Part shown: piece after piece, positions 3,200-49,925 of the stretch
Numbering within the stretch: position 1 is the first letter of the stretch
How the letters are laid out: each line of letters starts with the position of its first letter
Virus record (IMG/VR): IMGVR_UViG_3300028920_000064
Coordinates: 1 to 64,000 of that record
Reading direction: 5' to 3' (one strand)
Length of the DNA stretch: 64,000 nucleotides
Source: a virus
Made by a program: the position numbers and the translations under genes
Notes under the pieces: generated by a model
Seen by the model: only the letters and a program-made list of their open reading frames with translations
Databases searched by the model: none
What the model was told of the DNA's origin: nothing

Positions 3200-3591
3200 C
3201 ACTATTCACAGATGAACAGATGAAAGGTACAGGGCAACTAGACATGGTTGCCCTTATCGAACAGAACGAAGCCACCAAGAAAAGGCTTCGCACGACCCCA
3301 CACCATTTCTACGGTGATCCCTATCACGGATGGCTCAAGGTGCGAGTCAGCCACCTTAAAGCATTGGGCATTTTCGGGGCCATTACGGGCTTTTCATACC
3401 GCAGTGGGGATGATGTATACCTTGAGGAGGGTTTGGACGCTGAGACCTATATAAATGCCCTTTTCGGCAAGCATGGCCTCCGCACTAAGGATCAGCAAAA
3501 CGCCTTTGGCGCATGGAGGGATATGCTCATCTCCCATCAAAGCAACAGCGACAGCTTCGTTCGTAACTTACCTCAATTTCACAAGGGATGA
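3196..3591 (+). CDS. Conserved phage/mobile-element hypothetical protein (DPxHGWL family)
   Basis: DPYHGWLKV...ITGFSY..GD.VYLEE motif; translational coupling. Confidence 0.7.
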   Translation: MTLFTDEQMKGTGQLDMVALIEQNEATKKRLRTTPHHFYGDPYHGWLKVRVSHLKALGIFGAITGFSYRSGDDVYLEEGLDAETYINALFGKHGLRTKDQQNAFGAWRDMLISHQSNSDSFVRNLPQFHKG

Positions 3592-4111: not shown

Positions 4112-4319
4112 GATAACGAAACATGAACAGGAGTATATCAACGGCATACAGGCAGAAATGATATTCTATGACCAATACCTTGATTTTATGAAGAGAGTGA
4201 AGAAGCAATACGTGGAATATGGGCCAGAGCAGGCAATAAGGTATGTTCAAAGCTACGCTGCCGACCTTGTAGGAATAGCTGCTGATGAGTTGTTCTCAGC
4301 ATTATTTAATAAATTGTAA
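4104..4319 (+). CDS. Hypothetical protein
   Basis: In-operon ORF; start placed at MDEITK after an A-rich leader. Confidence 0.55.
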   Translation: MDEITKHEQEYINGIQAEMIFYDQYLDFMKRVKKQYVEYGPEQAIRYVQSYAADLVGIAADELFSALFNKL

Positions 4320-17225: not shown

Positions 17226-17657
17226 TCACTTAATCTCTAAAGTTATATCCTCGCCGTGACGAATAGCATCCAGCATCTTCTCAATAATTATCATTTCATA
17301 CTCGGTGCTGTTGATCACTTTCCCCTTCACTTTGTTCTCTCCTGGCAATATACAGCCGGCAGAATCCTCTGCGGTGTTGCCACGGTGGATGCGGATCCCC
17401 AGGAAGTGTTTGACATTCTTTACCAGTGGCAAAAGCCTTTGAAATTTGGGTGACATGGTGAGGTCCACCTCATATTTGCCATAAGGGATTGCAGTCATGC
17501 CGTACACCTTCCCTTCCCCGGGATCATTCAGATCACCATCCCGGTTTAGATCCCTCACTTTGTCCTCTATGGTGTCGCATAGATAAATACCATTGATAAA
17601 AAGTGATCCAATGGTGTAGTTCTCTCCTAAAAAACGTCTTTCAAGTCTTAGTTTCAT
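17226..17657 (-). CDS. DUF5675 family protein, putative endolysin
   Basis: YTIGSL..NG...CDTIED, TAIP.G.Y, SPKF, GIRIHRGNT.EDSAGCILPG; located between membrane lysis genes. Confidence 0.8.
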   Translation of the reverse strand: MKLRLERRFLGENYTIGSLFINGIYLCDTIEDKVRDLNRDGDLNDPGEGKVYGMTAIPYGKYEVDLTMSPKFQRLLPLVKNVKHFLGIRIHRGNTAEDSAGCILPGENKVKGKVINSTEYEMIIIEKMLDAIRHGEDITLEIK

Positions 17658-18034: not shown

Positions 18035-21000
18035 TTATTGGCCCCTTTGCGCTCTCTCTATTGCCTTTAATTCTGCTGCTTCCTTATTAAAATCCCTTGG
18101 CCTTCCGGTTTCGGGGTCAATTGATTCCTCAAGTGCTTTCCTCAAATCTGCCGCCACCTGTAAAACTATTGCCCCCTGCTGATCCTTTAGTGCGTTATCG
18201 GCTTGAACATTCTGGTCGAAATACCCATTCAATACATTCCTGAAAGCCGCATAGTGGCCCTCGTATCTGAGGTGCGGGTATCTCTTATACAAATTTATTA
18301 AATATTGCACATCAACAGATCCGTAAATCTGAGGATCCTTGTACAATCCTGTGTCATCCAGCTGCAGGGCCACTCTCCGGTTAGGCTCTCCCATTATTGG
18401 GGCGTATTCAAATGCGCCTATGGGATATTCAGCATAAGTGGAGAACTGCGAGAATAGGAAAGCATCCAACATCCTTGCGTCAATAAAGGGATTGTCCTCT
18501 GACCGCCAGGTGACATAATCTGATCCTTCCTGTATCATTCTGGAAAACTTGCTTGCATTTTGGGTTTCCCTGGACACAATGGCCACATCCCTCTCCTCTG
18601 GGGGAATGATATGCTTCTGTCGGTAAAGATCATAGTTTGTGGCCCAATTGATAAATCCTGAGAACCCACTGGTCACACCGCTTACGCTGTATGGATTCAG
18701 GTTCTGAATTGCTGACCACCAGAAGCCATCGCCAAAAGCGTCTTTGTCCTTCAATATAACACGGTCCATACCTCTTTGTGCAATAGATCCTATACGTCCC
18801 AGTTCAAAAGGCTTTGGCACGATGATCCATCCACGACCAAAAGGATTGGGAAGCCTGTAAAATCCATCTCTCAGGTAATTGGGATGAGTCAAATACTCTT
18901 CTTTCTCATCATCTGATATCCATGGTGCCCAGGCTATCAGCATTGAGTTCATAATAGAGGGCATGATGGAGAATAGTGCAAGATGTCCCAAGAACCGTCC
19001 CGGGCTCTTCTTTGCTACCCTCACAATCTTCTCAACGCCTCTGACAGCGGCGCTGGTGAATATCATAAACTTATTCAACTCACGCACAACTGTTCCTGCT
19101 GCAGCAAAATCCATGAGATCCCTTGCGATAAACGCTGCCCTGGCTGATGCCTCAACGTGGGATAGCCCATATTTCTTAATCCCCTCCTGGTAGGCTGACA
19201 TATACTGCAATCTACGAGTAGGGCGTTCGCTCATGTTTAGCTGCTTCCTGGCAAACTGGAAACCTTTCCCCACCAGGGTATATGTCGTACCTGGCCGGCC
19301 TCTTTTCTTGGCCTGTAGCATATACTGATGATGAGGCAGCTTGCTTTCTTTTCTTGCATTGATGCCGACAATCTGTTTACGTGGGACAAATCCGAACTGG
19401 CCACCACCATACCTTTCAAAGCCGTTATCTGCATCCTTATTGGGTAGCAGGTGCCAAGGTCTTGAATATCTTTTTGCAGTGCCAATCACTGACCACTGAA
19501 GAAGGTCTCGGATCATGTTCCTGTTCACAAAACGAACTGACCTGGTAATCGCCTTGCGTAATAACTGAGGGGCAAAAGAGATAATCTTCATTGCAAGACC
19601 ATCCTCTGAAGATATAAGGTCCTTCCAGTTATTGTATAGGTATTTATCCCCAAATACAAGGAACCTTTTTTCTCCGTTTTGGTAAAAAGCTATGCTGTTA
19701 GGTTCTGCTTTTTTGGAAACCCATGCGATCTCACCCTGCTTCACAACCTCTCCCTCATACATATCCCTGCCAACCCAATCTCTTTCAAACACATCGGCAA
19801 AGGTTTGAACCGTGTAGTTCATGTCCCCCACATCGATCACGTTTATCCAGGACCTGATAAGGTTGGACACTGGGTTATCAATGGGCCTGTCGCTTCCTTT
19901 AAAGGGAAATACGACATCCCTGGGGAGTAATCCTTTCCCGGATGGCCTTCTGTTTTCTTCAAACTCAAGATCCTTGCCGGCCACCATGTCTGCAGGCTCA
20001 ATAGCCTGAAGCCTGTTCATGCCCACATAGTCCAGGTTCTCGTTCTGTATAAGATCCTTGGTGTACTCAGAGATCAAGCCGGCCTGGTAAGCATAGTTGG
20101 ACCATTGCTTGCTGATCTCTCTATATATTCGCCAAAACTCGGTGATACCTTCAAAAAGCTCCGGATTATTTGCCTTAACCTCTTCAAACTCTTTGAGTGT
20201 TTCAACAGCGATATCATAATCTCTTTGTCCGGATTGAGCAGCACCTGTTATAACTATGTTGGTGAAATCATAACGCCCCTCCTCGCCTTTCGGGTCGATC
20301 CAAACCTTCTCCGGATCCAGCTTACCCTCATCGATGCGGGTAAGGATATCATTTATCTTCCCCTGCCACATTTCTATGATATGGGGATGCTGTGCCAATA
20401 GCTTCAGTGGTGGTAGCCGATCCTCTGTGTTTTCCAAATCAAACCTGATCAATCTTGCCTGGTATTTCTTTGGCAATTCAACAGCCCTTTGAGCAATGCC
20501 ATACTTCATAGCTTCAACTACATTGGCCTCGTATTCAGCGTCTGAATGCCCGGGGATAGCTTCGTACATTGAATCAAAAATCAATGGCCGGCCCGTTTTT
20601 GAATCGTAAATAGGGGTCCCATCAAGATCCATCACGCCCCTTTTCATAAGATTTTCCAACTTAACATCGATGCCCAGGTGGTTCCTGGCCATGATCTCAA
20701 AGTTTCTCAGTGGAGACAGTTGATTGGGATCATGGATATCCTTAATTCCTTTCTGCTTCGCTGCGTATTTGAAAGCCTCAACAAGTGGGTCAAGGAAGTA
20801 CCATATCCTCCTTCCCATCTTATCAAATATGGTTACTTTGAACTGGCCCTGCTCGTTTTCCCTGTTCCATTCAGTTTTTTGCCTTCCCTCTGTGGGATCC
20901 AGGCGAACATTGGCCAATAACTGATCCCCGGCTGAGGATCCGTAAAGAGTCCTGATATCCTTACCGAACTGAACCAGACCATCCCATACCTTTTTCTCTG

Positions 21001-24000
21001 GCATAAGCTGTGATGAGAACCATTTGTAAGTGGTGGGGAACCTTTTCTCTGCTTCATTTGGGTTCACAAGCCATGCCCGGGTAAACTCAGCCATGCCCTC
21101 AGCCATCTTGTATCTCTCTGGATTCTTATGCCCCCGGGGAGGCTTGCTTCCAAATTCCCAAAGATCTCTCAGTTCTGATTTGAGTTCAGAGTAAATAGGG
21201 TAAGCCTTGGGGCCAAGCAATCCATACTTGTCATCAAGGTAGTGGCCTATCTCATGTGCCGCTGTATCCTCATCACCAAACCTCTTGATACCCATCTTAC
21301 CAGTGGTGGGATCATACGCTCCTGCCGCCCTTCTGGTGGATGGCCTACGGGTATATTGAATTTTCTTTCCAATAGCATTGGAAACATCGTCCTGGATCTC
21401 CCACAGCTTCTTCGGGCTTTTCCCTTTCTCCGGAGTTATTGGGTCAGGTGCCACTCGGCCTTTGGTGGTCCTGTATATCATGCCAATTGGCTCATTATGG
21501 GGATTGGATAACCCTCCCCTGTCCACTGCTCCGGTACGTGGCGGTGCGCCATACTCGTCCATAGTGTTTGAGGCATCGGTCTGGTCCATGGCTCTTTGCA
21601 CTTGCTTGCTGCTTGATTCAATGGTCAGCTTGAACCGTTCGTCAAGAACATTCAGTAAAGGCTGTAGTGCATCCTCATTGAACTTTGCTACCATGCGATC
21701 ATTTTTCTGCTCAAACAGGCCATAGTCCACAATAGACTTGATCACCTCGTTAGCATAATACTTGGATCCGCGCTTGGTAGAGGCGGGAACCCTCAACTCA
21801 TATAGCTGTGGAGAGCTGTAAGTCAGCTTCTTTATCAACACATCCTTCGACATATCCTCAACCATGTCGTATGGAGCCAGGGCCTTGATGATGCTGGCAG
21901 CTTTCTTTATAGGTATCCTGGCCGTATTCTCAGTATCATTGATCCAGTTCTCAGGCATCAGTATACCTCTTTCAAGGCTACCGTCAGCCATGGAGAATTT
22001 AATCAATCGACCTTTCTTAAACTTAGTCATCCCTTGAAGGATGTTTCCGGTCACGATATACCTTTTCTCCCTGGTCCTTTTCTTTTTGATATCATCCCAG
22101 GTGTCGAGTATTTCCTGTGACTCCCTGGTTCCAAGATGGTAGCTGTTTCCCCTGATGGCATCCAGGTGTACGCTTTTACTGACAGGTATCCTGAACATCC
22201 TGCGGCTATCAGTGGTAGCAAATTTCAACAACACATTGCTCGGGACCCAGGGGTTGTCCTTCTTCATGTTCACATCATAACCGATAAACACTCCTTTGTT
22301 CATGCGAACCATGTCCAGCTGATCATCCTCAGTGAATGGGATCTCCAATCCTCTTCCGGGATAGAAGAAATCGAAATAGGATTTGAACTTTGATTTATGC
22401 AAAAGCGCAACAGATCTCAGCGTATCGATGCGATCCGCTTCACGCTGATCAATCTCGTTCTTTTTTAACTCATATTCCCGGGACTTCTCCTCCGGTGTCA
22501 ATCCCGACTTCTCCTCTATCTTCTTTTTCTGTAAGGTCCTGGCCTCATTGGAGCTTTCTGTAACTTTTGCAATCTGCTTGGCCAGCTGCTCATCGATCCC
22601 CTTATCCATGGCTGCCCTCATTTCCTCAACATGATTATCCGGAACCTCATCCAGCTTTTCCATCAACTGCTCTCGGGTAAAAGGCTTCCTGGTCACATTG
22701 ACATCTGATTTATTCAATACAGTGTCATCGCCAAAATATGAATATCCTCCTTCGCCATCAATAGAAACTTCACTCTCCACAAACTCGGCATCCAAGGACT
22801 CATTGGTCACCATCAAATCGTTGGTGCCGGTGCTGTTCAGATAGTCTATCTCTTGCAGGTATCTCTCCTCTACCTCGTTCTTAAACTCCTCCTGTAGTTC
22901 AGAGGGGAGAATTTGTATCCTTCCGGATACTCGGTGTGCTGCATCCTGCTTGTTGGGATCCTTGCCTCCAATATTCAGGGGATCACCTATCAGCTGATTG
23001 ATTTGCGGATTATCTTTCAGATACTCATATACCACATTGTCACCATACTTGTTCAGGAAATCAACAACATCCGCCAGGCTCTTGCTCTGCTTCTGATTTC
23101 CGGATGTGTTGGCATCAAGTGATTTCAGCTTCTTGGCATTCATCATAAAGTTCCTCAACTCTGCTGGGAGCGTTGAGGTAGCGATATTGTAAATCGGCTT
23201 ATTCAGCTGATCTGCCCGATAAACCCTACCGAACAGCTGAACCACCACATTGATATCGAAATCGTTTTGCAGTGTCCACATGGTCCTTTGACTCACATCG
23301 TCAAAGTCTGGCGATGAGTGCATGGAGATACCAGTAGATCCTGCCTTATTTACAATGGCCGCCACCCCTGGATTGTTGTTAAACCTGGCCACGGCCTTGA
23401 TCTTATCTCCCCTGTCATTCGTTACCCAGGTTCCCTTGGTCTCGTCTGCATTCATCTCAAACATACTGCCACGGCCAGTAATTTCAACTACCTCAAACCC
23501 TGCATCTGTGATTCCTTTTTTCAATACATCGATGGGAGATATAGGTATGCCGGTTGACATCCTTTGGATGTTTTCCATCATGGTATAATATCGATCTCTT
23601 CCGGTGGGTGTGAGATCCTCCGGTTCAAGCATCTTCTTGAGATCGTTGCCCTGCTCGTCTTTCTCGGTATATTTCATTACCGTATCCATCCCCCTCTTCA
23701 GGACATAGGAGAAATCCAAGTCTATAGTTTCCCCCTTTTTCAGTTCATCGTTATTAAACATATCCAGGAAGATGCTCTCCATGGTGCTTTTTAAAGCGAT
23801 AACCGGTTTCCGGCCTGCTTTCAAATCCTCAACGATCATTGGTATGGCCTCTCTCACCTTCACTGATAGTAATAGCTGATCGATGACATTCCATATACGG
23901 CTGAAGTATGGCTGATTTGATATACCTGCCTGGCTTGTGCCGGCTCTCTCTCCTACCTGCCTACCTTCACGCTTAACCTGTTCGTTCATTTCCTGCAGGA

Positions 24001-27000
24001 CAGGATTAATATAATCCCTCTGGAACTTAATGATCTCCCGTAGCACACTGGTTACATTGTCAAATCTTTGAACCATCTGCTTGCCCAGCTCGGGGTTATA
24101 TGATTTTTGTGAGGGATCAGTATCGCCAATAACGATATAATTCATTTCAGCATCCATCCGGAAGCCTATCTTGCTGAACTGTCCTGACTCTGCCAGCTGG
24201 TGAGTTATGATCTCCTGCAGGGCAGGACCACCGGCGATGATACCATCTACTAATTCCTCAAGGGACATATTTGCCTCCTGGAGAACGGTTTTCATTGCAT
24301 AAAGAGGCATGTTATCAGGACGCTTGGCATAGGTCGCTGACAAGAATATACCTCCATTGGTGTTCAGGATCCACTCTTTGAAAAACTCCCCGGTATTGCT
24401 CTGCCCGCTGGCCTCATGGCTCTCGTCCATTATGAACACTACATCGTGATCCCTGGTTAGCTGCCTCAAGAAGTCTCGCTTGGCATCATCCCTTCCCTCT
24501 GTGGTGAACTGGGAATAGGATGTCATTACCATTTTCACATCACTGGGAAGTTTACGGGATCCAGGCTTATCAGGTGTACCAACGATCCTTCTTAACTCTT
24601 TGAAATCAGCCTCCCACTTTGCTTCTCCTTCTTTGTCAAATACCTTCACCTTCTGTCCTGAACTGGAAAACTGCTTGTTCATTATAAAAGGCTTGTAATT
24701 GGGGGACCCGATGTTAACCAGGTCCCGATAAATATCGGTAAACAGATCAGCGCCTTTGGTGATAAATACTGGCAGCTTGCCGTTCTCAACAGCATACCTC
24801 ACAACTGATGCTGCAATTCTTCCCTTGCCGGCACCGGTCTGATGGCCGATGATCATCGCATTGTTCCCTTCAATATTGTAAATAGCCTGGCCAATACCAT
24901 CTATTTGCTCGGCAAAATTGCCTGTTGCCTTCATATCGTCCATGCTGTTGTACTTCAGCTTGGCCCGAACGTATTCATCAATATCTCCGATCTCATCACT
25001 CAGCTGCTTCAGTGCATCCTGTACCTCAGCTGCTATTGATGCAGGGATCACAAATTTGCCTGACCCCATCCTGCTCAAAGGAGTGTATGGAGTAACATCA
25101 TCAGAAGAGATGTCCTCTATACCAAGCTCTCGCTTACTACTCTCATCAGGCTTTCCAATGTTGTTTGTTGGTAAATCGAGCGCACTTCGCGTGGGTCGAA
25201 CTTCTCCAAATCTTCTAATTTCTCCCCTTCGTCCCGTCTGATCAGTTCCACCAAATGATTTTGGAATTGTGGACTTCGCATTATCTGTTCTGCTTGCCCT
25301 GGTACGTCCGGCTCCGGGATCAGGTCTAGTAAATCTTGGATTAATGAACGCCTCATCTCCAGCGGCTCCTTGCTCAGGAGGGATTCCAGTTTCTTCTGAA
25401 ACAGTCTGATCAGATCCGGGACGCTCTGTGGTTGGGTTTGGGTCGGTTTCTCTACCGCCCACAAGCGAATCAGATCCTCGCTCGGCATCCACTTCTCTTT
25501 GTAAGCTATTCCTTTCATTCGCTTTAGTTTTTAGGATGTTAATTCTGTCACGTACATCTATCCAATCAGTAACAGGGTCAAATGATTTGTTGTAGAGTGG
25601 GGCTGCACCTTTCTTCTCTGTCTTACGGCCATTGACCAATATCAGCTTTACAGGATAACTTGCGCCCATGGTTTTATACAGATCCCCAGGAATCTGTATC
25701 ACATCCTCAACGTAATAATTCTTGTTCAGCCAGTTGAAAAACGCCAGGTCTTTCCCAAGCATCTGATCGTTGGGTTTGAACTTCACATGGCCACCGGTAA
25801 TGATAGCCGCTTTCCCTGTATCGCTTAATGATTTAAGAGCATGGGCAACAGGCAGGTATTCACCATGTAGCCAGTACCCTTCAAAATCTTCGGTCCTGCC
25901 ACCGAAAGGAGGATTGATATGGACAGCATCCACGGTTCTTACATCCAGCTGATCCTGGATCCCCCGGGTGCTGTCCACATTAAACACCCGATATCCTTGC
26001 TCAATGAGGTTTTGCCAACGCCCTTTGTCAATCTCATTGGCCCGCACTCCTTTTCTGTTTGCTGTGATCAACAAAGCACCGTTGCCGGCACTGGGATCCA
26101 TGACATTATCAACATCCTTTGCATTGGTATATTCACCCATAAGAAAAGCCAGGGGAACGGGAGTGCTGTATTGTTGCTTCTCCTTGATCTCATTGGTCCG
26201 GTATGATAGAGTGGGGAACGTGGTATACAATTCCTGGATTCGTGAAAATTTCTCATCGCTGGTCAGTGTCTCATCCATAGCGATGGTTCGGGCCACCTCA
26301 ACCATGGCCACTTCTGCCCTCTCACGAATGTTTGTCTTGTTGGTAACGCCCCACTTTTTTGCAATAGCTGTTAGCTCCCTGAAATCAGCAATCGGCTCTC
26401 CATTCCATATCCGGTTCTTCACCTCCCAGGTAAATGCTCTTTGACGTACCAGGTTATGCTTTTCCTCAGTTTCATCTAAAATCTCTGAGAAATACTTTAC
26501 TGATTTAGCTAGCTTCTCTTTTGAGGCGAACTTATATCCTTTTGCCAATGATCTCGCATGAGACCCTATGCCATACATGGCCATAATGGGCGATGTCGGA
26601 TAGAACCTGTCATGCAGATATCTTATCTCGCTGATTCCATTGTTGGTAAATCCCAGCTGGGCAAGGATCTTGTGATGATCGTTTGTCAGCCTCACAAGCC
26701 TATCCAGGTCCTCTTTTTTGGCATGTTGGAGTATAAATGGTGTCAACGGCTCACCTCGCTTGACATAACTTTCTAGCAGCTCTAAAACGGTCTCCTGGGT
26801 CCAATCTGTCTCAACAGGTATGGGGGTGAACATAACCTTTCCTGAAAGGATATCGTTCTTCCTTCTTTCATACTCAGCTGCTTTTTGTTTGTTGGCGATA
26901 TCCTCCTTCCAATCAACCTCTGCCTGAAAGTAGGATCTCGGTTGCCTGTACATCTGCTTCTCAAGTCGTTCGGCCTGGTCCATTTGACCGATAGATTTGT

Positions 27001-30000
27001 AGATGTCAATGATCTTGCTCAGTTCATCCCTGTATTCTTTGTTGTCATACGGGGGAACTTCCTCTGCTTTTCCCTCAACGATGAGTTCACGGAACTTATC
27101 AACTATGACCGCCTTCTTCGACTCTCCCCGGATAGACATGGGATCCTCCATGATGGCCACAGTTAGCTTATCGAACTGTGCCGGTGCCTCCCCGAACAGC
27201 CCCCCTAAATCTTTTACTCGCTGATCTCGGGGATCAGTCCATTCCTCCACCCTTACGATCTTGAGTTCTTTGGAGAGTTCAGGGATGTAAAATACTTTTC
27301 CTACTATATCGGAATATGGATCCTGTGCCGGTATCTCCGTCTGTCCCGCCGCCTCGCTGCCGGCTGTGGCCTTTGATTGATCAAGCGCATCGATCTCCCT
27401 GTTCAACGCTTCTATCTCTGCATCAAAAGGTTGTAATGCTTTCTTAATGTTTTCTTCAGTAGGCTCAAAGGTTTCATCGAACATCACCGGGGCATTGGGA
27501 TCGGCCTTGGTGTCACCAAACAATCCTTTGCGGTCAGTCAGTTCAGCATACTTTTTCTGTTTCTGCTTCTGAATGTCCTGGATCTTCTCACGTTTCTCAG
27601 TGATCTTATCCTCAATCTCCTTGGTTACCCTTTCCCTTTCCCTTCTGTTTTCTGCCGGACTTGCTCTTTCACCGACTCCACGATCAGGGCGTTCTTCGCC
27701 AAGCTCTGCTTCGACAGCTGCCCTGGCTGCTTCTTGTTCCTTGATTTCATCTTCAATGTTTTTAAGGTACTGGTCTTTTTCTGCTTCAGTCAATAGGCCC
27801 ATTTCAACAGCTGCATCCACGTTGTTAGGAGCCAGGTCACCATATTGCATGGTGAATTTTTCAAGATTTGCATCACCAATGGTGCTTAAAACCTTATTTA
27901 TAGGAACGCCTACCGGTGGGGTGTTCCTGGTTTGCCTAATGTTCAACACACCTTGGTTGTATGCCAAATCCAGGAAGTTCAATAACTTATTGGCGGCAAC
28001 AGTGTTCTTGCCGGCTTTGATGTTTTTGACAGCAGATTGTATCTGTCTTTTATCCAGCCAGACATCAGCCCCCTCAAGGTATTCGGGGTTATCCATTAAT
28101 TTGTTGACGAAATCAATGAACCCGGGATCCTCGTATTCTTCCAGTGTTTTCTGCGCATCGATCTCCTCCTGGGTTACCTTATCGGCTATCCTTCGTATGG
28201 GCTTACCCTCTTTATCCCGTACAGTCAGATCCCCTTTCTCAGTTTTAATGGTATAGCCAAGCTCATTTACTGCCCTTCCTATGTACTGATAAAGATCTGC
28301 CCTTTTCTGAGTGTAACTTTTGGGGAGATTGTTGTATTTCTCAACAAAGTCAATCACAGCATTATGCCTGTTCACTCTGATTTTCTCGTCATACTCAGCT
28401 TTTAAAGCCTCATCTTTTTCGGTTTGCTTTTCCTTCTCCTTCTTAACCTTTTCAGCAGCTTCCGGATAAAGCTCATTGAAGATTGCGCTTACCCTTTCAA
28501 GCATGGCTGCTCCTTGATACTTGTCTGTATCAATCCAGATCTCTTTCTCTGGAATATAATCTTTGGTTTGTGATGTTGCGCTGTCCTCAAAGGTGGGATC
28601 CACCATGCGCCTCATCTCCTCACCACTTACCATTATTGTCTTTACATCGTTTGGAAGGGATAGTGCTTGATATTCTTGCTTGGTTACCAGCTTTTCTATG
28701 TTCTCAGGCTGAACGCCCTCTGCCGGTTCCTCTTCTACTGGCGGTTCCTCTACGGGGGCCTCCTCCTCTATTGGAGTTGTGAGATCTTCGGTTAAAACAT
28801 TCTTGATATGCTCACGGATGGTGATATCGGGATCAATCTCTTCCTCCCTTGCCCGGGAAATATCATCCCACACATACAGCATTGCGTTGTCAAACTCTGT
28901 CTGAGTGAGATCCGGAGCAAGTTCTCTGATGGTTTTTTCAATATCCCCCTGGATCTGCGCTGCATAATCACCTACCTCTTTCTGCCAATCTTCAGCCAGG
29001 ATCTCTGCGGCTCGGTTCATGTTGCGAAGTTCCTGGTCTAGCTTCTTGCGCTCTTTCTTCTGTTCTAGTGTTAATCGGCCTTTGAACTCGGTATCCAGGC
29101 GTTTCTGAATAGCTTCACGATCCTTGGTGATCTCCTCCACTTTGGATGCAACTTCATCCTCTCTGGCCACGAAACGAGCATTCAGGTCCTTCAGCTTTTC
29201 ATTCAGAATTTCTTTTGGTTTCCCAAAAACTGTTTCAACCTCTTCCTCAACCACGGGTTCCTCTGTAGGTTCTTCGGGTGCCGGCTCTTCTTTTGCCTTC
29301 CGGATCTCCTTTGCTTTCTCAATGGCCCTTACCACATCGATGTCCATGTCGGGTAATGGAAGCCTTTCGGTGGGGTATTTCGCCAATTCTTCAGCAAGAT
29401 CTTCTATACTGGCAAAGTCCCGGCCACCATACCTGATCATCCCTTCCTCTTTCTTAGGAAGGGCTTTCCTTTCTTCCAATGCCTGCTCGGTTACGGCCAG
29501 AGCTTCTAGCACATCAGCCCTGATTATGGGGATATCCTCAACATTCTTGATAGTCCGTTTATCCCTGCCAAGTATTTGAATCACATTTTGAACATCCAGG
29601 TTCAAATCTTCATTTTTGATATCCCCTGTACGTCCTTCTTCATACATGGCATCAAGGGTCTGGATGATATTCTTTGCAACATCCTGCCTTTCCCTTAACT
29701 GGGCCTCATTCATAAATTGAGTATCGAAGGTCCATGGCTTTGTCTCATCCACCTCAACCTCTACCTTCGGTGCCGGTTCTTCTTCTACTGGGGGTTCCTC
29801 AGCAGGGGGCTCCTCTTCAACTGGCTCAGGCTCTACAGGAGGTTCTTCCGGAACGGGTTCAGGTTCAGGTTCAGGTTCAGGTTCGGGCTCAGGCTCTGGT
29901 TCAACAGGCTCTTCTACGGGTGGCTCGGGAGGTTCAACAGGCTCAAGGGGTTCTCCCTCTTTCTTTCGGGTTGCAATATCAACTCCCTTGATAGCCACAC

Positions 30001-31339
30001 CGCCGGCAGTAAAGTATGCACCACCAGCGAATCCTGCCCAAAATGAATCCCAGGCATTGTCCATGGGTTCAGCGTCGGGCCTTACGCCTGTGTGTTTATC
30101 AACAATATTTTCTCCGACAGCATTGATAAATTCCTCCGCACCCTCTTGAACAGGTGCTGTCCATAGACCTACCTTTCTGTAGGTTGCCATCATCCAGGAT
30201 CTCAATCCGGTTTCAAGCACCTCTTTTGTAGCATCTTTCCCGATAGTCTTTATAGATGCTTTTATCAGATTACCAAGACCCTGAGTGCTAAGTTCTGTCA
30301 GTGACTCAAGTGTGCCTGTCAAAGCCGCATTAAGTATGGCTGCCCCCTCCGGGGTTTCAGCCTCGATCAGCCTTTCATATTTTTCCCCTCCAACGTATAA
30401 CCCCAATGAAGCAAGTCCCGGTGCGCCACCGAATGCTGCAACTATTGTAAGTGGTAAACTTTCGGCACCTTCAAGAACAGCTGCGCCAACAGCTTCCTTT
30501 TTGTTCCCGTCATTCCATAGTTCAGTTATGGTTTTATCATACCGCTTACTGCGGTCCAGGAACATCTTTTCCCTTTCTTCCCAATTCTTGTAGTAGTTGG
30601 TGCGGGTATCAATAAGGTTCTTGACATCGTTGGATGCTTTTAATGTTTGCACCGGTCCTAGCGCACCAAACCCCATTTCCTCTACAATCTCTCCAACCTT
30701 ATCCGCTTTCCCCGGGTCTATGCCCAGTTTCTTCAGTTCCCACGTAAACACTTTCCCCGGGACGGTCAATAGCTTTTCCGCAAACTTGGAACCTTTCTTG
30801 GAATATTCTGGTAGCTTGGAAACCCCAGCCAGGATCCTCTCTCCCAAATCACCCATGAAAGATTCTTTGGCAGGCTGCCCTTCCTCTCCCGGTAAGGGTG
30901 CCAATAAGCCCTGTGGCTCTCCCTCTGGCATGAGCATCGTCATGGCATCTTTTGTGTCAAGATCCTCTGTAGACTTGGGAGGTTCGCCTTTAGGCCAATC
31001 CATAGGGGGCTTGGGGGCTTCTGGTATGTAATCCTCAAACGAAGGAATAGGGAAAGGATCTGCCGGCTGTACCGGAGGAGGAAACTTTTCTTGAAGATAT
31101 TTTGCCCTAGCTGATTCAATCTGTACCTGATCGGCTCCTTCCTCTGCTTCAATAGGGGCCAGGTATTTATCAAAATACTTGTTAAGCCTATCTTCCTTTT
31201 CCTCATCAGAAGCCTGCTGGTATGTCGGATCGTTAAGCATCATGTTCTCATAGAACTTGGCTCTTTCACGTTTCGACAAACCCCTGTCCTGTGTGGTGGG
31301 GTTATAATCAGGCTTCTTTACAGTTTCTTTCTTTCCCAT
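18035..31339 (-). CDS. Giant polyvalent virion cargo protein (DarB-like): adenine MTase, Strawberry-notch SF2 helicase, zincin peptidase, LPD38-like C-terminus
   Basis: QYSTP, MDPSAGNG (26078-26101), NPPF (25904-25915); GAGKGR (24818-24835), DESH, LSATY, AGSTGISMH, QLFGRVYR; HEIGH (21242-21256) with EGMAEF; MDF..AG and PKPFELG (about 18800). Confidence 0.85.
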   Translation of the reverse strand: MGKKETVKKPDYNPTTQDRGLSKRERAKFYENMMLNDPTYQQASDEEKEDRLNKYFDKYLAPIEAEEGADQVQIESARAKYLQEKFPPPVQPADPFPIPSFEDYIPEAPKPPMDWPKGEPPKSTEDLDTKDAMTMLMPEGEPQGLLAPLPGEEGQPAKESFMGDLGERILAGVSKLPEYSKKGSKFAEKLLTVPGKVFTWELKKLGIDPGKADKVGEIVEEMGFGALGPVQTLKASNDVKNLIDTRTNYYKNWEEREKMFLDRSKRYDKTITELWNDGNKKEAVGAAVLEGAESLPLTIVAAFGGAPGLASLGLYVGGEKYERLIEAETPEGAAILNAALTGTLESLTELSTQGLGNLIKASIKTIGKDATKEVLETGLRSWMMATYRKVGLWTAPVQEGAEEFINAVGENIVDKHTGVRPDAEPMDNAWDSFWAGFAGGAYFTAGGVAIKGVDIATRKKEGEPLEPVEPPEPPVEEPVEPEPEPEPEPEPEPEPVPEEPPVEPEPVEEEPPAEEPPVEEEPAPKVEVEVDETKPWTFDTQFMNEAQLRERQDVAKNIIQTLDAMYEEGRTGDIKNEDLNLDVQNVIQILGRDKRTIKNVEDIPIIRADVLEALAVTEQALEERKALPKKEEGMIRYGGRDFASIEDLAEELAKYPTERLPLPDMDIDVVRAIEKAKEIRKAKEEPAPEEPTEEPVVEEEVETVFGKPKEILNEKLKDLNARFVAREDEVASKVEEITKDREAIQKRLDTEFKGRLTLEQKKERKKLDQELRNMNRAAEILAEDWQKEVGDYAAQIQGDIEKTIRELAPDLTQTEFDNAMLYVWDDISRAREEEIDPDITIREHIKNVLTEDLTTPIEEEAPVEEPPVEEEPAEGVQPENIEKLVTKQEYQALSLPNDVKTIMVSGEEMRRMVDPTFEDSATSQTKDYIPEKEIWIDTDKYQGAAMLERVSAIFNELYPEAAEKVKKEKEKQTEKDEALKAEYDEKIRVNRHNAVIDFVEKYNNLPKSYTQKRADLYQYIGRAVNELGYTIKTEKGDLTVRDKEGKPIRRIADKVTQEEIDAQKTLEEYEDPGFIDFVNKLMDNPEYLEGADVWLDKRQIQSAVKNIKAGKNTVAANKLLNFLDLAYNQGVLNIRQTRNTPPVGVPINKVLSTIGDANLEKFTMQYGDLAPNNVDAAVEMGLLTEAEKDQYLKNIEDEIKEQEAARAAVEAELGEERPDRGVGERASPAENRRERERVTKEIEDKITEKREKIQDIQKQKQKKYAELTDRKGLFGDTKADPNAPVMFDETFEPTEENIKKALQPFDAEIEALNREIDALDQSKATAGSEAAGQTEIPAQDPYSDIVGKVFYIPELSKELKIVRVEEWTDPRDQRVKDLGGLFGEAPAQFDKLTVAIMEDPMSIRGESKKAVIVDKFRELIVEGKAEEVPPYDNKEYRDELSKIIDIYKSIGQMDQAERLEKQMYRQPRSYFQAEVDWKEDIANKQKAAEYERRKNDILSGKVMFTPIPVETDWTQETVLELLESYVKRGEPLTPFILQHAKKEDLDRLVRLTNDHHKILAQLGFTNNGISEIRYLHDRFYPTSPIMAMYGIGSHARSLAKGYKFASKEKLAKSVKYFSEILDETEEKHNLVRQRAFTWEVKNRIWNGEPIADFRELTAIAKKWGVTNKTNIRERAEVAMVEVARTIAMDETLTSDEKFSRIQELYTTFPTLSYRTNEIKEKQQYSTPVPLAFLMGEYTNAKDVDNVMDPSAGNGALLITANRKGVRANEIDKGRWQNLIEQGYRVFNVDSTRGIQDQLDVRTVDAVHINPPFGGRTEDFEGYWLHGEYLPVAHALKSLSDTGKAAIITGGHVKFKPNDQMLGKDLAFFNWLNKNYYVEDVIQIPGDLYKTMGASYPVKLILVNGRKTEKKGAAPLYNKSFDPVTDWIDVRDRINILKTKANERNSLQREVDAERGSDSLVGGRETDPNPTTERPGSDQTVSEETGIPPEQGAAGDEAFINPRFTRPDPGAGRTRASRTDNAKSTIPKSFGGTDQTGRRGEIRRFGEVRPTRSALDLPTNNIGKPDESSKRELGIEDISSDDVTPYTPLSRMGSGKFVIPASIAAEVQDALKQLSDEIGDIDEYVRAKLKYNSMDDMKATGNFAEQIDGIGQAIYNIEGNNAMIIGHQTGAGKGRIAASVVRYAVENGKLPVFITKGADLFTDIYRDLVNIGSPNYKPFIMNKQFSSSGQKVKVFDKEGEAKWEADFKELRRIVGTPDKPGSRKLPSDVKMVMTSYSQFTTEGRDDAKRDFLRQLTRDHDVVFIMDESHEASGQSNTGEFFKEWILNTNGGIFLSATYAKRPDNMPLYAMKTVLQEANMSLEELVDGIIAGGPALQEIITHQLAESGQFSKIGFRMDAEMNYIVIGDTDPSQKSYNPELGKQMVQRFDNVTSVLREIIKFQRDYINPVLQEMNEQVKREGRQVGERAGTSQAGISNQPYFSRIWNVIDQLLLSVKVREAIPMIVEDLKAGRKPVIALKSTMESIFLDMFNNDELKKGETIDLDFSYVLKRGMDTVMKYTEKDEQGNDLKKMLEPEDLTPTGRDRYYTMMENIQRMSTGIPISPIDVLKKGITDAGFEVVEITGRGSMFEMNADETKGTWVTNDRGDKIKAVARFNNNPGVAAIVNKAGSTGISMHSSPDFDDVSQRTMWTLQNDFDINVVVQLFGRVYRADQLNKPIYNIATSTLPAELRNFMMNAKKLKSLDANTSGNQKQSKSLADVVDFLNKYGDNVVYEYLKDNPQINQLIGDPLNIGGKDPNKQDAAHRVSGRIQILPSELQEEFKNEVEERYLQEIDYLNSTGTNDLMVTNESLDAEFVESEVSIDGEGGYSYFGDDTVLNKSDVNVTRKPFTREQLMEKLDEVPDNHVEEMRAAMDKGIDEQLAKQIAKVTESSNEARTLQKKKIEEKSGLTPEEKSREYELKKNEIDQREADRIDTLRSVALLHKSKFKSYFDFFYPGRGLEIPFTEDDQLDMVRMNKGVFIGYDVNMKKDNPWVPSNVLLKFATTDSRRMFRIPVSKSVHLDAIRGNSYHLGTRESQEILDTWDDIKKKRTREKRYIVTGNILQGMTKFKKGRLIKFSMADGSLERGILMPENWINDTENTARIPIKKAASIIKALAPYDMVEDMSKDVLIKKLTYSSPQLYELRVPASTKRGSKYYANEVIKSIVDYGLFEQKNDRMVAKFNEDALQPLLNVLDERFKLTIESSSKQVQRAMDQTDASNTMDEYGAPPRTGAVDRGGLSNPHNEPIGMIYRTTKGRVAPDPITPEKGKSPKKLWEIQDDVSNAIGKKIQYTRRPSTRRAAGAYDPTTGKMGIKRFGDEDTAAHEIGHYLDDKYGLLGPKAYPIYSELKSELRDLWEFGSKPPRGHKNPERYKMAEGMAEFTRAWLVNPNEAEKRFPTTYKWFSSQLMPEKKVWDGLVQFGKDIRTLYGSSAGDQLLANVRLDPTEGRQKTEWNRENEQGQFKVTIFDKMGRRIWYFLDPLVEAFKYAAKQKGIKDIHDPNQLSPLRNFEIMARNHLGIDVKLENLMKRGVMDLDGTPIYDSKTGRPLIFDSMYEAIPGHSDAEYEANVVEAMKYGIAQRAVELPKKYQARLIRFDLENTEDRLPPLKLLAQHPHIIEMWQGKINDILTRIDEGKLDPEKVWIDPKGEEGRYDFTNIVITGAAQSGQRDYDIAVETLKEFEEVKANNPELFEGITEFWRIYREISKQWSNYAYQAGLISEYTKDLIQNENLDYVGMNRLQAIEPADMVAGKDLEFEENRRPSGKGLLPRDVVFPFKGSDRPIDNPVSNLIRSWINVIDVGDMNYTVQTFADVFERDWVGRDMYEGEVVKQGEIAWVSKKAEPNSIAFYQNGEKRFLVFGDKYLYNNWKDLISSEDGLAMKIISFAPQLLRKAITRSVRFVNRNMIRDLLQWSVIGTAKRYSRPWHLLPNKDADNGFERYGGGQFGFVPRKQIVGINARKESKLPHHQYMLQAKKRGRPGTTYTLVGKGFQFARKQLNMSERPTRRLQYMSAYQEGIKKYGLSHVEASARAAFIARDLMDFAAAGTVVRELNKFMIFTSAAVRGVEKIVRVAKKSPGRFLGHLALFSIMPSIMNSMLIAWAPWISDDEKEEYLTHPNYLRDGFYRLPNPFGRGWIIVPKPFELGRIGSIAQRGMDRVILKDKDAFGDGFWWSAIQNLNPYSVSGVTSGFSGFINWATNYDLYRQKHIIPPEERDVAIVSRETQNASKFSRMIQEGSDYVTWRSEDNPFIDARMLDAFLFSQFSTYAEYPIGAFEYAPIMGEPNRRVALQLDDTGLYKDPQIYGSVDVQYLINLYKRYPHLRYEGHYAAFRNVLNGYFDQNVQADNALKDQQGAIVLQVAADLRKALEESIDPETGRPRDFNKEAAELKAIERAQRGQ
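29856..29902 (+). repeat. (GGTTCA)n hexamer tandem repeat encoding a Pro-Glu linker
   Basis: Four perfect copies plus degenerate copies; protein EPEPEPEPEPEPEPEP. Confidence 0.9.
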
Positions 31340-31350
31340 TGATCTAAATG

Positions 31351-32979
31351 TTAGGGAGTTTGATTCAGCACACCATACATCTCTGCCATATATTTCTTGA
31401 TCTCCTGGAGGTCGTATTCTTCAGCGCCCATCTTTGCAAGATAGGCGTTGTTCACACTGGCCCAGGGAGTGATAATCGTTTTTCCATGCTTGGATACATA
31501 ATCGCTCCATGATACAGTTCCCATGGACTTCTCTTCCTGCGCTGCGCCATATACCGATTTTGTAAGCAGATATGGTTCGTAGGTCAGGGGGATCCCCTGG
31601 TTAATCATTGCTTTCAGAACCTGTGTGGGTATCGGCTTGCCTGGGCGTACAGTGTATTTCTTCGTTGATCGGTTGCCCTCTTTGTCAACATGCTCATACT
31701 CCATGGGTAGATTATCCGATCCATTGTATGTGGGCATGAAGGATATTGATGCCGCCTTGTGGGATCCTATCTTAGTCCTGTCTGGCTCGGCTCCTGTGCT
31801 GGTATCAATTGCATCTGCCGGGGTGATGGAGTCAAACACCTCATCGATGCCTGAAAGAGGTATGTTATATGCTTCGTATTCCATCTCATCAGCCTGTTGC
31901 ATCTCAGGCGTTTCCTCCTTCTTCTTCCCTCTCCAATTGGTTTTATAGGTAGCCGGGGTGATGGTCTGTGACTTCATCACGATGGGCTGATTGGCTGCTG
32001 CCAGGTCAATGCTACCATCATCTGTTCGTGGTATACCACCTCTGAGACCGGTGGGCTCGCCCTGATCATCCTTCGGCAGCCTTGATGTTTTCTTGGTAGT
32101 GGTAGTTCCGTGTAATCCGGAGAACTTATTGGCAAACCATTCTTTCGGGTCCATGACAATACCGTCAGCATTTCGTTTGTCGGGGGCTACCTCATACATG
32201 GAATCGATGGCGTTCTTCATGTTCGGCTCTGCCATTTCGTAGCCAATGCGGTATGCTTCGTGAACTTTCTTGGGATCAGCCCCGGTGATCTGTGTGGTAG
32301 TCATTGTGTTTGTGATAGGATCAACCTTGATTTCATGGCTCATCACATCCGAACCTTCTACCATGGATCCTACTTTCTTCGCATAACCAATGATGTCCTG
32401 TGGCTCGGGTTTGTAAACAACAAGGGTTCCTGCATTGTCCACAAATGGTTGGGCAAATTCTGTGACATCCTCTGCCTCATTCATTCTTTGAACATTCTGG
32501 TTGGTGAGTTCCCAGTCGATCTTATCCCTATTGGCTCCCCGCATCACTGCCAGGTCCTTTTTGTATTGCTCTGCGTAATGGTTGTGAATAGGTATATCCG
32601 TAGCCATCTTGTTCTCAAGTTCGGATAGCTTGGCCGTGACGTTCTCTCCTTCAGGTGTCTTTGCCATCTTTGCCAATCCCCCTGCTGCCTGTTGCTGCTT
32701 AAACAGGGCACCCATCTGAACCAGGTCTTTATTGTACTTGCTTGCTATTTTTTTATTAATACCCTCTACGGTGGGCATCGATTTGATGTATTGCTCATAA
32801 TTTCTCTGGTCCAGCTCCTTATTCATCATTCTTTCCTGCCTGGACTTTTCCCAGCCGGCACGAATGGTGGCAATGGGATCGTAGGAACTCTTTCCAAGAT
32901 CCGGTACACCTATTCCCAATGGATCGGCCCCTTCTGGTATGTTGAAATTAACATCGCTATAACTTGTTCCCTTTGCCAT
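31351..32979 (-). CDS. Putative virion cargo/ejection protein
   Basis: 542 aa, helical N-terminal half; lies between the muzzle and the giant cargo gene. Confidence 0.55.
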   Translation of the reverse strand: MAKGTSYSDVNFNIPEGADPLGIGVPDLGKSSYDPIATIRAGWEKSRQERMMNKELDQRNYEQYIKSMPTVEGINKKIASKYNKDLVQMGALFKQQQAAGGLAKMAKTPEGENVTAKLSELENKMATDIPIHNHYAEQYKKDLAVMRGANRDKIDWELTNQNVQRMNEAEDVTEFAQPFVDNAGTLVVYKPEPQDIIGYAKKVGSMVEGSDVMSHEIKVDPITNTMTTTQITGADPKKVHEAYRIGYEMAEPNMKNAIDSMYEVAPDKRNADGIVMDPKEWFANKFSGLHGTTTTKKTSRLPKDDQGEPTGLRGGIPRTDDGSIDLAAANQPIVMKSQTITPATYKTNWRGKKKEETPEMQQADEMEYEAYNIPLSGIDEVFDSITPADAIDTSTGAEPDRTKIGSHKAASISFMPTYNGSDNLPMEYEHVDKEGNRSTKKYTVRPGKPIPTQVLKAMINQGIPLTYEPYLLTKSVYGAAQEEKSMGTVSWSDYVSKHGKTIITPWASVNNAYLAKMGAEEYDLQEIKKYMAEMYGVLNQTP

Positions 32980-32997: not shown

Positions 32998-33663
32998 TTA
33001 AGACATTATTCCACCTGCAATATCCATTATTTTACCAAAGGTCCCGCCAGTGAAAACATTGCCAAGCTGTTGGGCGGTTGCGTCAAGTGCGCCACCCATG
33101 CCTTGAAATGATTCAGCCCATGACCCCATCTTGGTTTTTAAACCTTCCCACTCTCCCTGCCGGCCCTGCTGTTCAAGCATTGCTGCTTTCTGCTGCGCCA
33201 TAAGGTAAGGGTCAGCCTCGTTCCAATTCCATGCTTGCTGCTGCCATTGACCAAGCCCCTCTAAGGCCCCCAGGTACTGATCCTCTGCTTGGTTCCTGAA
33301 CTGTGCATTTGTCACACCCAGGTTTGCAGTAGTATCCATTTGGTTTGCATAGAGATCTGCAATACCTCCGAAAGCCTCAGCACCGGTACCCATCTCTTTC
33401 ATGGCTTCTACCCCTCCGGCAGTGGCTTTTTGAATTTGGTTTTGCATTGTAGTTAGACCGGGCATATTTTGAAACCTTTTACCACTGGCCAGCTCCATCA
33501 TCATCTGTATGGCTTGCGGTGTTTGCATCTCCGGGCGCTGGAAAGACTGCGACAAGGATCTTGCCTCGTCAATCATGCCCTGCCCCAACTGCATTTGTTT
33601 CTTGCCCAAACGGGAACCCTGGATCCCGGCACCGATGTTTCCTAAGAATGAGAATATACCCAT
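32998..33663 (-). CDS. Putative ejection protein (G/A/Q/M-rich)
   Basis: Composition typical of podovirus ejection proteins; immediately after the muzzle gene. Confidence 0.6.
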   Translation of the reverse strand: MGIFSFLGNIGAGIQGSRLGKKQMQLGQGMIDEARSLSQSFQRPEMQTPQAIQMMMELASGKRFQNMPGLTTMQNQIQKATAGGVEAMKEMGTGAEAFGGIADLYANQMDTTANLGVTNAQFRNQAEDQYLGALEGLGQWQQQAWNWNEADPYLMAQQKAAMLEQQGRQGEWEGLKTKMGSWAESFQGMGGALDATAQQLGNVFTGGTFGKIMDIAGGIMS

Positions 33664-49385: not shown

Positions 49386-49925
49386 TTAGTTCATTTTTAC
49401 CGTCAACTGATTGTAACTGATCTGAGCCTGGTCACCGGTGGGGATATCCAGTGGTAAAGGCAATTCCTTTTTGAACAGCATATTTCCTCCCTGCAATGAA
49501 TCCATCACTGCTATATGGGTGATCGTCACTTCAGGCCCCTGATTTGGTGGCCATGTTGCCACCGGGATGTTCTTCGCTCCCCCGCTTTTATACTCCCATC
49601 CGGAAGCCCCTCTTATGATGGGGACCCTGGTATAACCTAAGTAGCTTGCTTCAAGCCCTTGGTCCCCTATCTCACCAGGATCCCCAGTAAGTAAAGCTAT
49701 GTAGAAATTCCCCTCAATCGCCGAACCCCTTAAACCTGATTGATCGCCAATCCCAGCAAAATCAAGGTTCATAAATAATAGCTCTACCACTTTTTGTTCC
49801 ATAAAATCTGTGGCATCATCAGCACCAATGCCTCCACCGCCACCATAGTCAATGTTGGTGAAATGCTCCAACGCTGTCCCGGTGGACAGTGTAGACATCT
49901 GTACTAATAGTTCTCCCGTTGTCAT
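49386..49925 (-). CDS. Tail/fibre-associated structural protein (paralog of 56674-57108)
   Basis: YIALLTGDPGE.G...EASY.GY.RV...RGASGW...ITHIAVMD. Confidence 0.7.
   Translation of the reverse strand: MTTGELLVQMSTLSTGTALEHFTNIDYGGGGGIGADDATDFMEQKVVELLFMNLDFAGIGDQSGLRGSAIEGNFYIALLTGDPGEIGDQGLEASYLGYTRVPIIRGASGWEYKSGGAKNIPVATWPPNQGPEVTITHIAVMDSLQGGNMLFKKELPLPLDIPTGDQAQISYNQLTVKMN

Follow-up and report, generated by a model that had tools for sequence, protein, structure and literature searches.

What is made by the giant open reading frame (ORF) that closes the virion-gene block of the virus recorded as IMGVR_UViG_3300028920_000064, and is its place in the genome one that formerly belonged to an injected RNA polymerase? 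The DNA analysed, here called the window, comprises bases 1-64000 of this 77,440-bp virus record, which was rated 100% complete by CheckV, and the giant ORF (P0001) takes up 17% of the genome. The original prediction, made from the sequence, had described a DarB-like methylase-helicase polyprotein in the crAss virion RNA polymerase locus, delivered instead of a polymerase, and had proposed it as a candidate for an undescribed system. The analysis reported here led to another answer, to which we assign a probability of about 60%: the product is a polyvalent protein delivered by the virion and built in two layers, a carrier and an anti-restriction cassette inserted into it.

The ORF listing, the Pfam searches and the translation bore out the domains and motifs first described for the 4,434-residue product. 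Five Pfam domains were found, all above their curated cut-offs: N6_Mtase (PF02384) at residues 1713-1918 (31.4 bits), ResIII at residues 2139-2318, AAA_34 (PF13872) at residues 2160-2388 (32.4 bits, cut-off 27), Helicase_C_4 (PF13871), the Strawberry-notch C-terminal domain, at residues 2616-2775 (70.6 bits, cut-off 30.5) and LPD38 (PF18857) at residues 4147-4274 (48.1 bits, cut-off 27). LPD36 gave no Pfam match in the giant at E <= 0.01, and conservation starts ∼60-100 residues ahead of the methylase. The translation holds DPSAGNG, NPPF and one single HExxH (HEIGH, residue 3362), together with a Pro/Glu linker at about residues 466-530 and hydrophobic G/A-rich segments at residues 283-318 and 4117-4139. 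Met1 was invariant in an N-terminal alignment of 10 homologues, while methylase motifs I and IV, NPPF, Walker A and B, DESH, SAT and helicase motif VI were invariant across 26 homologues of 17-69% identity. Comparison with a 72%-identical homologue (in L011) found that 1,470 of 2,992 identical residues were specified by a different codon. These data indicate that the giant gene is real, intact and under purifying selection, and that its product is probably active.

The His, Glu, His, Asp and Glu residues of the zincin-like segment were invariant in 17 homologues, and the confident portion of its AlphaFold2 (AF2) model resembled the catalytic domain of anthrax lethal factor (Foldseek probability 0.99, E 0.2-0.4); within the model of residues 3300-4434 this was the sole part resembling a solved structure. 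The model as a whole was nearly all alpha-helical (mean predicted local distance difference test, pLDDT, 71.5) and matched the C-terminal segments of dozens of entries named 'large polyvalent protein' (Foldseek/BFVD, E down to 2e-21). The N-terminal domain is kept at the N-termini of six related giants (P0002, P0003, P0005, P0006, P0008 and P0009). The AF2 model of residues 1-560 was helical or disordered and of low confidence (pLDDT 46), too poor for a fold search.

The division into carrier and cassette was drawn from a sister phage, found by a TerL-based scan of IMG/VR. This phage (G001, IMGVR_UViG_3300037234_000386) has a 72,323-bp genome with terminal repeats, is 100% complete and is fully syntenic with the window phage, to which it is 77% identical in TerL, 77% in the major capsid protein (MCP), 65% in the portal and 48% in the muzzle protein. 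Residues 39-468 of the giant in its corresponding slot align with residues 21-459 of the window giant (BLASTP E 5e-30), and residues 886-1278 with residues 1028-1424 (BLASTP E 4e-32). LPD38 (90 bits) lies in the C-terminal 950 residues, a module that matches the C-terminus of gp3 from phage BS-TP4 and also residues 3709-4503 of Bcep22 gp75 (E 7e-40). A profile made from the C-terminal module of the window giant in turn matched BS-TP4 gp3, Bcep22 gp75 and the G001 giant, the last at its C-terminus with E 2.4e-14. No Strawberry-notch domain (PF13871) was matched in G001, and its slot giant has neither methylase nor HExxH, nor the nested gene described below. By alignment, the window giant is a G001-like carrier with ∼1,800 extra residues, which comprise the methylase, the Strawberry-notch ATPase and the zincin. 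As the G001 carrier stands without the methylase-helicase, the enzymes appear to have been added to or lost from a carrier rather than swapped for a polymerase, and the ancestral occupant of the slot would have been an LPD38-type carrier.

The gene order runs from a GroES-like gene through TerL, portal, MCP, a fibre cluster, two ring-like proteins, the 1,248-residue muzzle-like protein and proteins of 221 and 542 residues to the giant, which is the last large gene of the TerL-portal-MCP-rings-muzzle block and is tightly coupled to the upstream virion genes (gaps 11 and 15 nucleotides). The predicted placement of the giant after a muzzle gene and two small genes was thus correct, and all three are real ORFs. 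Their naming relies on synteny, on a weak crAss_MUZ_C match to the window muzzle-like protein (19.5 bits, under the Pfam cut-off of 27) and on strong matches of the same domain in syntenic relatives (64.6 bits in elemoA gp25 and 67.9 bits in phi38:1 gp97). The 221-residue protein is 50% identical to its G001 counterpart; the 542-residue protein gave no family match.

A giant is also the last gene after the muzzle and two smaller genes in phi38:1, phi18:3, elemoA and MW202828. The records of phi18:3 (by tandem mass spectrometry) and phi38:1 (by similarity to phi18:1) list the giant and the two preceding small genes as virion or structural proteins. These slot giants were nearly unrelated by BLASTP to each other and to the window giant; no enzymatic or polymerase Pfam domain was found in them, nor was a DFDxD motif, which the positive control, phi14:2 gp66, does show. 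In this lineage, virion proteins of hypervariable kind occupy the slot, with no sign of a former polymerase. The crAss-related flavobacterial-type podoviruses keep a giant, fast-changing protein behind the muzzle, in the virion where proteomics has been done, and the crAss polymerase slot is thereby framed as a cargo position and not as a polymerase locus.

The label crAss did not hold in its strict sense. TerL and portal of the window phage matched only Elemovirus (Flavobacterium), Pachyviridae (Cellulophaga, Tenacibaculum), Pervagoviridae and the spring-water podovirus MW202828, at 24-31% identity (tblastn), and the MCP and both ring proteins are homologous to syntenic genes of Elemovirus, Pachyviridae and Pervagoviridae. 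Proteins of phi14:2, a true crAss-like phage, gave zero phmmer matches when compared with all ORFs of the genome. Structural models of MCP and TerL from Pachyviridae and Pervagoviridae cluster with Crassvirales, a placement that is structural only (Evseev et al., PMC9855967). The phage is placed outside Crassvirales in a sister group to the crAss order, and its crAss link, seen in this clustering and in the muzzle C-domain of the relatives, is distant and structural.

On the two-layer reading, the carrier would be made up of the ∼460-residue N-terminal domain, a middle block and a helical C-terminal module of ∼1,000 residues with LPD38, encoded by the last large gene of the late virion operon behind a crAss-like muzzle protein and two smaller genes. 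The second layer, an inserted cassette of ∼1,800 residues, would supply an N6-adenine DNA methylase, a Strawberry-notch-type translocase and a zincin peptidase, and appears to hold, in the +1 frame, a nested gene whose small and mostly acidic product has its own start codon. The giant would be packed into the capsid and exit through the tail with the DNA, where the peptidase may cleave it into working pieces and the methylase-translocase would track along the incoming genome and methylate it in cis ahead of attack by host restriction enzymes, a mode of action proposed for P1 DarB. Packaging and ejection would be the tasks of the carrier, whether or not enzymes are attached to it. That the virion delivers a DNA-protecting polyvalent protein is likely.

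Several observations weigh against this reading. As the more distant members of the clade have no LPD38, virion status by position is analogy and not homology. A direct likeness between the window giant and Bcep22 gp75 is seen only with a profile and only in the LPD38 region (E 1.9e-5). The giant is not an orthologue of DarB: a profile of its core matches DarB weakly and over the methylase motif region alone (residues 89-224, E 1e-6), and the two helicases are of different families. No fold could be assigned to residues 560-1650, an Atlas search with them having returned no usable match, and the zincin goes unrecognised by Pfam, for which the MPTase model gave no match to the giant at E <= 0.01. 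Even for DarB-like giants, methylation in cis is to our knowledge a proposed activity.

The exchange originally proposed, in which a crAss-type phage swapped its injected RNA polymerase for a DNA-protecting enzyme complex, would fit the position of the giant after muzzle-like and small virion genes, which parallels that in phi14:2, where gp66 ends the block. It would also fit the outcome of the full-genome searches, in which no RNA polymerase was found in the complete genome by Pfam, by the gp66 search or by the DFDxD motif. PF00940 and PF00623 were absent, a weak result in that the PF00940 control rang in no control genome, and phi14:2 gp66 and gp67 gave no match to the genome; the Pfam, phmmer and motif tests would miss a very divergent polymerase. 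DFDxD was not found in the giant. DMDID (residue 664), set among residues of which 44% are charged, is the one DxDxD it contains, and gp66, run as the control, shows DFDID at residue 1361. As to a double-psi beta-barrel, residues 3300-4434 are modelled as nearly all alpha-helical, residues 1-560 as helical or disordered at low confidence, and residues 1650-3200 are methylase and helicase; residues 560-1650, which are 23-48% charged, gave no fold. Given that the phage lies outside Crassvirales, that no giant of its relatives has a DFDxD motif or a polymerase Pfam domain and that G001 has the same carrier without the enzymes, the swap is judged improbable and the claim that the enzymes stand instead of a polymerase was not upheld.

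Two other large ORFs were considered as polymerases and rejected. A 973-residue ORF (50362-53283, minus strand) contains DFDDD, the sole DFDxD of the genome, for which ∼0.4 motifs of this type are expected by chance; its Atlas look-alikes are ConA/Laminin_G lectin proteins (a lead only) and it is probably a fibre or spike. A 2,125-residue ORF (67713-74090) was found to carry leucine-rich repeats.

Two further explanations accept the enzymes and differ on where they act. The giant may be an unpackaged, late cytoplasmic enzyme that methylates progeny genomes, its place in the virion operon giving only late timing; many phages do carry orphan methylases that act on replicating DNA. Its N-terminal and LPD38 modules are, against this, common to a cassette-less slot giant and to proteins found in virions (PMC9144972; bioRxiv 10.64898/2026.04.10.717836), and both a length of 4,434 residues and a processing peptidase go beyond what simple maintenance methylation requires, so that this explanation is considered doubtful, if slightly less so than the polymerase exchange. 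The methylase-translocase might otherwise act on host targets, marking or remodelling host DNA or stripping host proteins so as to take over the cell, and not in anti-restriction. ATPases of the Strawberry-notch and SNF2 types are remodellers of protein-DNA complexes, effectors of many kinds occur on polyvalent proteins (PMC5512222) and related giants add ART, ParB-like and RelA/SpoT-type domains. The fixed pairing of a gamma-class adenine methylase with a motor is, to the contrary, the signature of DarB-type protection (PMC5512222) and nothing in the window giant points to host targets; this possibility is rated as low as that of the polymerase exchange.

The anti-restriction cassette of the two-layer reading has a far wider distribution than its carrier. 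The methylase-helicase core (residues 1650-3200) is common to 109 protein clusters of 2,700-6,400 residues, whereas the N- and C-terminal parts of the giant are common to only 15-20 close relatives, from contigs of up to 70-78 kb. An alignment-based scan of IMG/VR yielded 415 loci with relatives of the core; a single-sequence scan of IMG/VR found nothing. Locus-level counts cover the best 80 of the 415 loci, all of which hold ORFs of roughly 2,800-6,600 residues. The muzzle context of the window phage was seen in only five of these 80, and relatives of BS-TP4, a cultured and prevalent gut phage of Bacteroides in which the giant lies just upstream of the portal gene, account for 52. Found in 109 clusters, 415 loci and at least three phage backgrounds, the core behaves as a mobile cassette. 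The BS-TP4-like giants (L002:1511-17686, plus strand; loci L019-L089) are roughly 3,000-6,600 residues long with the same methylase-helicase core. On the Persicobacter plasmid pPP10 (L176:7980-12856, plus strand) methylase and Strawberry-notch helicase are separate, adjacent genes that overlap by 4 nucleotides; this 53-kb 'plasmid' also encodes an amidase and may be a phage-plasmid.

The linker between methylase and helicase contains a second gene. The sole same-strand alternative-frame ORF of at least 100 codons inside the giant lies at 25117-25518, and in a sample of 81 sequences (the window and the 80 IMG/VR loci) a +1-frame ORF of 103-162 codons was present in the linker of all 81; 37 of those giants hold no other such ORF. 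Openness alone may reflect composition: a stop in the +1 frame requires an NTA or NTG codon, and hydrophilic linkers contain few of these. In close pairs of sequences, differences outside the overlap fell at main-frame codon positions 1, 2 and 3 in the numbers 2028, 1447 and 5563, while inside the overlap they numbered 728, 563 and 626, with the peak at main-frame position 1, which is position 3 of the +1 frame. This pattern cannot be explained by composition. Divergence at main-frame 4-fold-degenerate sites was 0.05-0.24 inside the nested ORF against 0.41-0.70 outside it in 10 of 10 pairs (Fisher p 4e-2 to 2e-14), and in nine of the 10 no other window of the 13-19-kb gene was as constrained as the nested ORF. 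Every copy contains an ATG, which in 77 of the 81 comes no more than 11 codons after the preceding stop, and Shine-Dalgarno motifs of GGAGG or GGAG type were found 6-9 nucleotides upstream of it in four lineages. A frameshift product was rejected, a -1 slippery heptamer occurring at the end of the ORF in only two of the 81. These comparative data strongly support a real gene under purifying selection. A complete small gene lying in the +1 frame inside a larger one recalls the same-strand nested genes Rz/Rz1 of lambda.

The nested products have a median isoelectric point of 4.4 and a median net charge of -12 across the 81 sequences, the window copy having a charge of only -3, and they evolve fast, with 18% column identity across subfamilies. 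No match was found to Pfam families or solved structures, membership of TnpV was rejected for want of a match, and no free-standing copy turned up in a scan of genome contigs with P0123. The ESMFold model of the nested protein is confident (pLDDT 82-83). Complex prediction of the nested protein with methylase residues 1650-1935 and helicase residues 2075-2400 gave a score of 0.44 (runs 0.26, 0.44 and 0.52; best control 0.00), a weak result that was not counted as evidence of binding, with partner pLDDT of at least 81 and runs agreeing in at least 73% of contacts. The mark used is reached by 58 of 80 solved complexes and two of 110 mismatches, and at scores of 0.60 or less by seven of the 80 solved complexes and both passing mismatches. 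This protein might, for instance, regulate the helicase or serve as its partner.

Related arrangements differ at the linker: G001 has no nested gene as it has no linker, the split methylase and helicase genes of pPP10 have no long linker, and an Acinetobacter plasmid encodes a fused methylase-helicase with an acidic main-frame linker and no nested ORF. Further windows of low synonymous divergence were noted in the giants of L014, L019, L039 and L041 near residues 720-740, 1260-1280, 1780-1840 and 3460-3480, which could be further hidden elements or recent recombination. The nested products are occasionally called as genes in public data; in hundreds of phage genomes, those of prevalent human-gut Bacteroides phages among them, gene callers overlook it. 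Its product is a strong candidate for a new small protein acting together with injected methylase-helicases or controlling them.

A broader proposal, to which we give even odds, combines these results. The methylase/Strawberry-notch unit would be a mobile cassette that always travels with a hidden +1 gene, conserved in each of the phage giants examined, and the small, mostly acidic, folded product of this gene may act on the helicase. In crAss-related podoviruses the post-muzzle slot may in turn be a general payload bay, in which a conserved carrier gains and loses enzyme cassettes and the crAss virion RNA polymerase is one payload among several. The features on which the analysis rests are located in Table 1.

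Table 1. Location of the giant gene, its parts, its upstream neighbours and the proteins of the equivalent slot in relatives (window positions unless a locus or gene product is named).
Feature	Position	Strand	Basis or remark
Giant ORF P0001, polyvalent protein	18035..31339	minus	Single ORF, 13,305 nt, 4,434 aa, ATG start
N-terminal domain, residues 1-460, hydrophobic G/A-rich 283-318	29960..31339	minus	Clade-specific; common to G001 giant
Pro/Glu linker and highly charged region, residues about 461-1650	26390..29959	minus	Composition; 1028-1424 common to G001 giant
N6-adenine DNA methyltransferase, residues 1713-1918, DPSAGNG and NPPF	25586..26203	minus	Pfam PF02384; invariant motifs
Nested +1-frame gene, 133 aa/codons	25117..25518	minus	In disordered methylase-helicase linker, giant residues 1937-2074
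Strawberry-notch-type SF2 ATPase, residues 2139-2775	23015..24925	minus	ResIII/AAA_34 and Helicase_C_4 (Pfam); invariant motifs
Extension of conserved methylase-helicase core, residues 2776-3200	21740..23014	minus	Aligned by 76-84 of 109 homologues
Zincin-like metallopeptidase, HEIGH at 3362, downstream Glu 3414 and 3418	20930..21412	minus	Conservation and AF2/Foldseek
C-terminal helical carrier module	18038..20929	minus	Holds LPD38 (residues 4147-4274 = 18518-18901) and hydrophobic 4117-4139
542-aa gene, 11-nt gap upstream of giant	31351..32979	minus	Synteny: counterpart of virion proteins phi18:3 gp121, phi38:1 gp100
221-aa gene	32998..33663	minus	Synteny: counterpart of virion proteins phi18:3 gp120, phi38:1 gp99
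Muzzle-like protein, 1,248 aa	33680..37426	minus	phrog_14478 match, E 7.5e-38
G001 slot giant	L175:3518-10573 (phage on L172-L175)	plus	2,352 aa, LPD38
Slot protein of phi38:1	gp101		1,691 aa
Slot protein of phi18:3	gp123		1,935 aa
Slot protein of elemoA	gp21		3,694 aa
Slot protein of MW202828			3,859 aa

Other genes of the phage were noted alongside. A GroES-like co-chaperonin is encoded just upstream of TerL (genome 66033-66731, minus strand; L001:2033-2731), a position kept in phi18:3, phi38:1 and elemoA. A DUF5675 protein (17226-17657, minus strand; 93.6 bits) is encoded two genes beyond the giant on its downstream side, still within the same closely packed operon. The fibre region includes a tail fibre of 2,947 residues (40541-49384, minus strand) with a C-terminal Peptidase_S74 intramolecular chaperone domain, of which only the first ∼443 residues are common with the 1,527-residue fibre of the sister phage, and a 179-residue protein (49386-49925, minus strand) matching Pfam Gp80, the fibre I protein of podophage GP4 (71.6 bits). 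The 2,125-residue leucine-rich-repeat ORF lies outside the window on the minus strand (L001:3713-10090) and is probably a receptor-binding or surface protein; a 171-residue ORF just downstream of it (genome 67084-67599) has an FN3/PhoD_N-like domain. The Bacteroidota-type promoter consensus (TTG...TAnnTTTG) occurred at seven sites against 4.3 expected, which was uninformative.

The window giant belongs to the class of polyvalent proteins, for which a methylase-helicase dyad with DarB as archetype, rare Strawberry-notch versions, processing zincins, the phage-only LPD38 domain and genes beside virion genes have been defined (Iyer, Burroughs, Anand, de Souza, Aravind 2017, PMC5512222). As in that class, an adenine methylase (NPPY/F) is fused at its C-terminus to an ATPase of SWI2/SNF2-related type, at least two unrelated enzymes share one chain, LPD38 is present and the gene lies among the late virion genes. 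It differs in using the minority Strawberry-notch ATPase, in having no Pfam match to LPD36 or MPTase, in its background, a crAss-related flavobacterial-type podovirus, and in its nested +1 gene, which is unmentioned in PMC5512222.

The nearest parallel in architecture is found in the Bcep22-like podoviruses, where the virion module ends with a virion-associated 'DarB-like' protein of ∼4,500-4,600 residues that carries methylase, helicase and LPD38; 51 unique peptides of one such protein, JC1 gp69, were detected by mass spectrometry in CsCl-purified virions (PMC9144972). The arrangement is already standard there and the class is described in PMC5512222, so the system cannot be called undescribed. 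Bcep22 gp75 (4,602 residues) and JC1 gp69 (4,515 residues) are nearly equal in size to the window giant and have the same order, with the methylase at ∼1,540-1,780, then the helicase, and LPD38 near the C-terminus; they too are encoded by the last gene of the virion module, after virion proteins of ∼200 and ∼510-530 residues. No pairwise similarity between the window giant and Bcep22 gp75 was found by BLASTP or phmmer, their helicase is of COG4646/DarB type and not Strawberry-notch, and JC1 gp69 has an N-terminal lytic transglycosylase without counterpart in the window giant. Another LPD38 protein, phi24B gp47, is abundant in virions and is a proposed ejection protein (bioRxiv 10.64898/2026.04.10.717836).

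Phage P1 DarB (2,255 residues) shares with the window giant a methylase and a superfamily 2 (SF2) helicase on one chain, and it has no LPD38 and no zincin; phmmer found nothing between the two. DarB resides inside the head and shields incoming DNA in cis from type I restriction, in a myovirus that has the separate helpers DarA, DdrA, DdrB, Hdf and Ulx. The crAss-like virion RNA polymerase phi14:2 gp66, which is packaged and ejected (bioRxiv 10.1101/2020.03.07.982082), is likewise a large protein at the end of a virion block downstream of a muzzle gene, but there is no sequence similarity between them, the window giant lacks DFDxD and is alpha-helical in its modelled parts, and the functions differ. 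The closest cultured relative of the core is BS-TP4 gp3 (5,391 residues, PQ571277.1), with 31.6% identity over ∼1,530 residues. It is annotated as hypothetical, and the gene is undiscussed in the BS-TP4 paper (PMC12694917). Its phage backbone is unrelated and the giant stands directly upstream of the portal gene, yet an LPD38-type C-module is present and a +1 ORF is nested in the gene, features that recur in the 52 BS-TP4-like IMG/VR loci. Against these systems the window giant is a clean, well-anchored example added to a known class. The most useful new points are the nested gene and the natural pair formed by the window phage and G001, which, one with and one without the enzymes, separates the carrier from the anti-restriction cassette.

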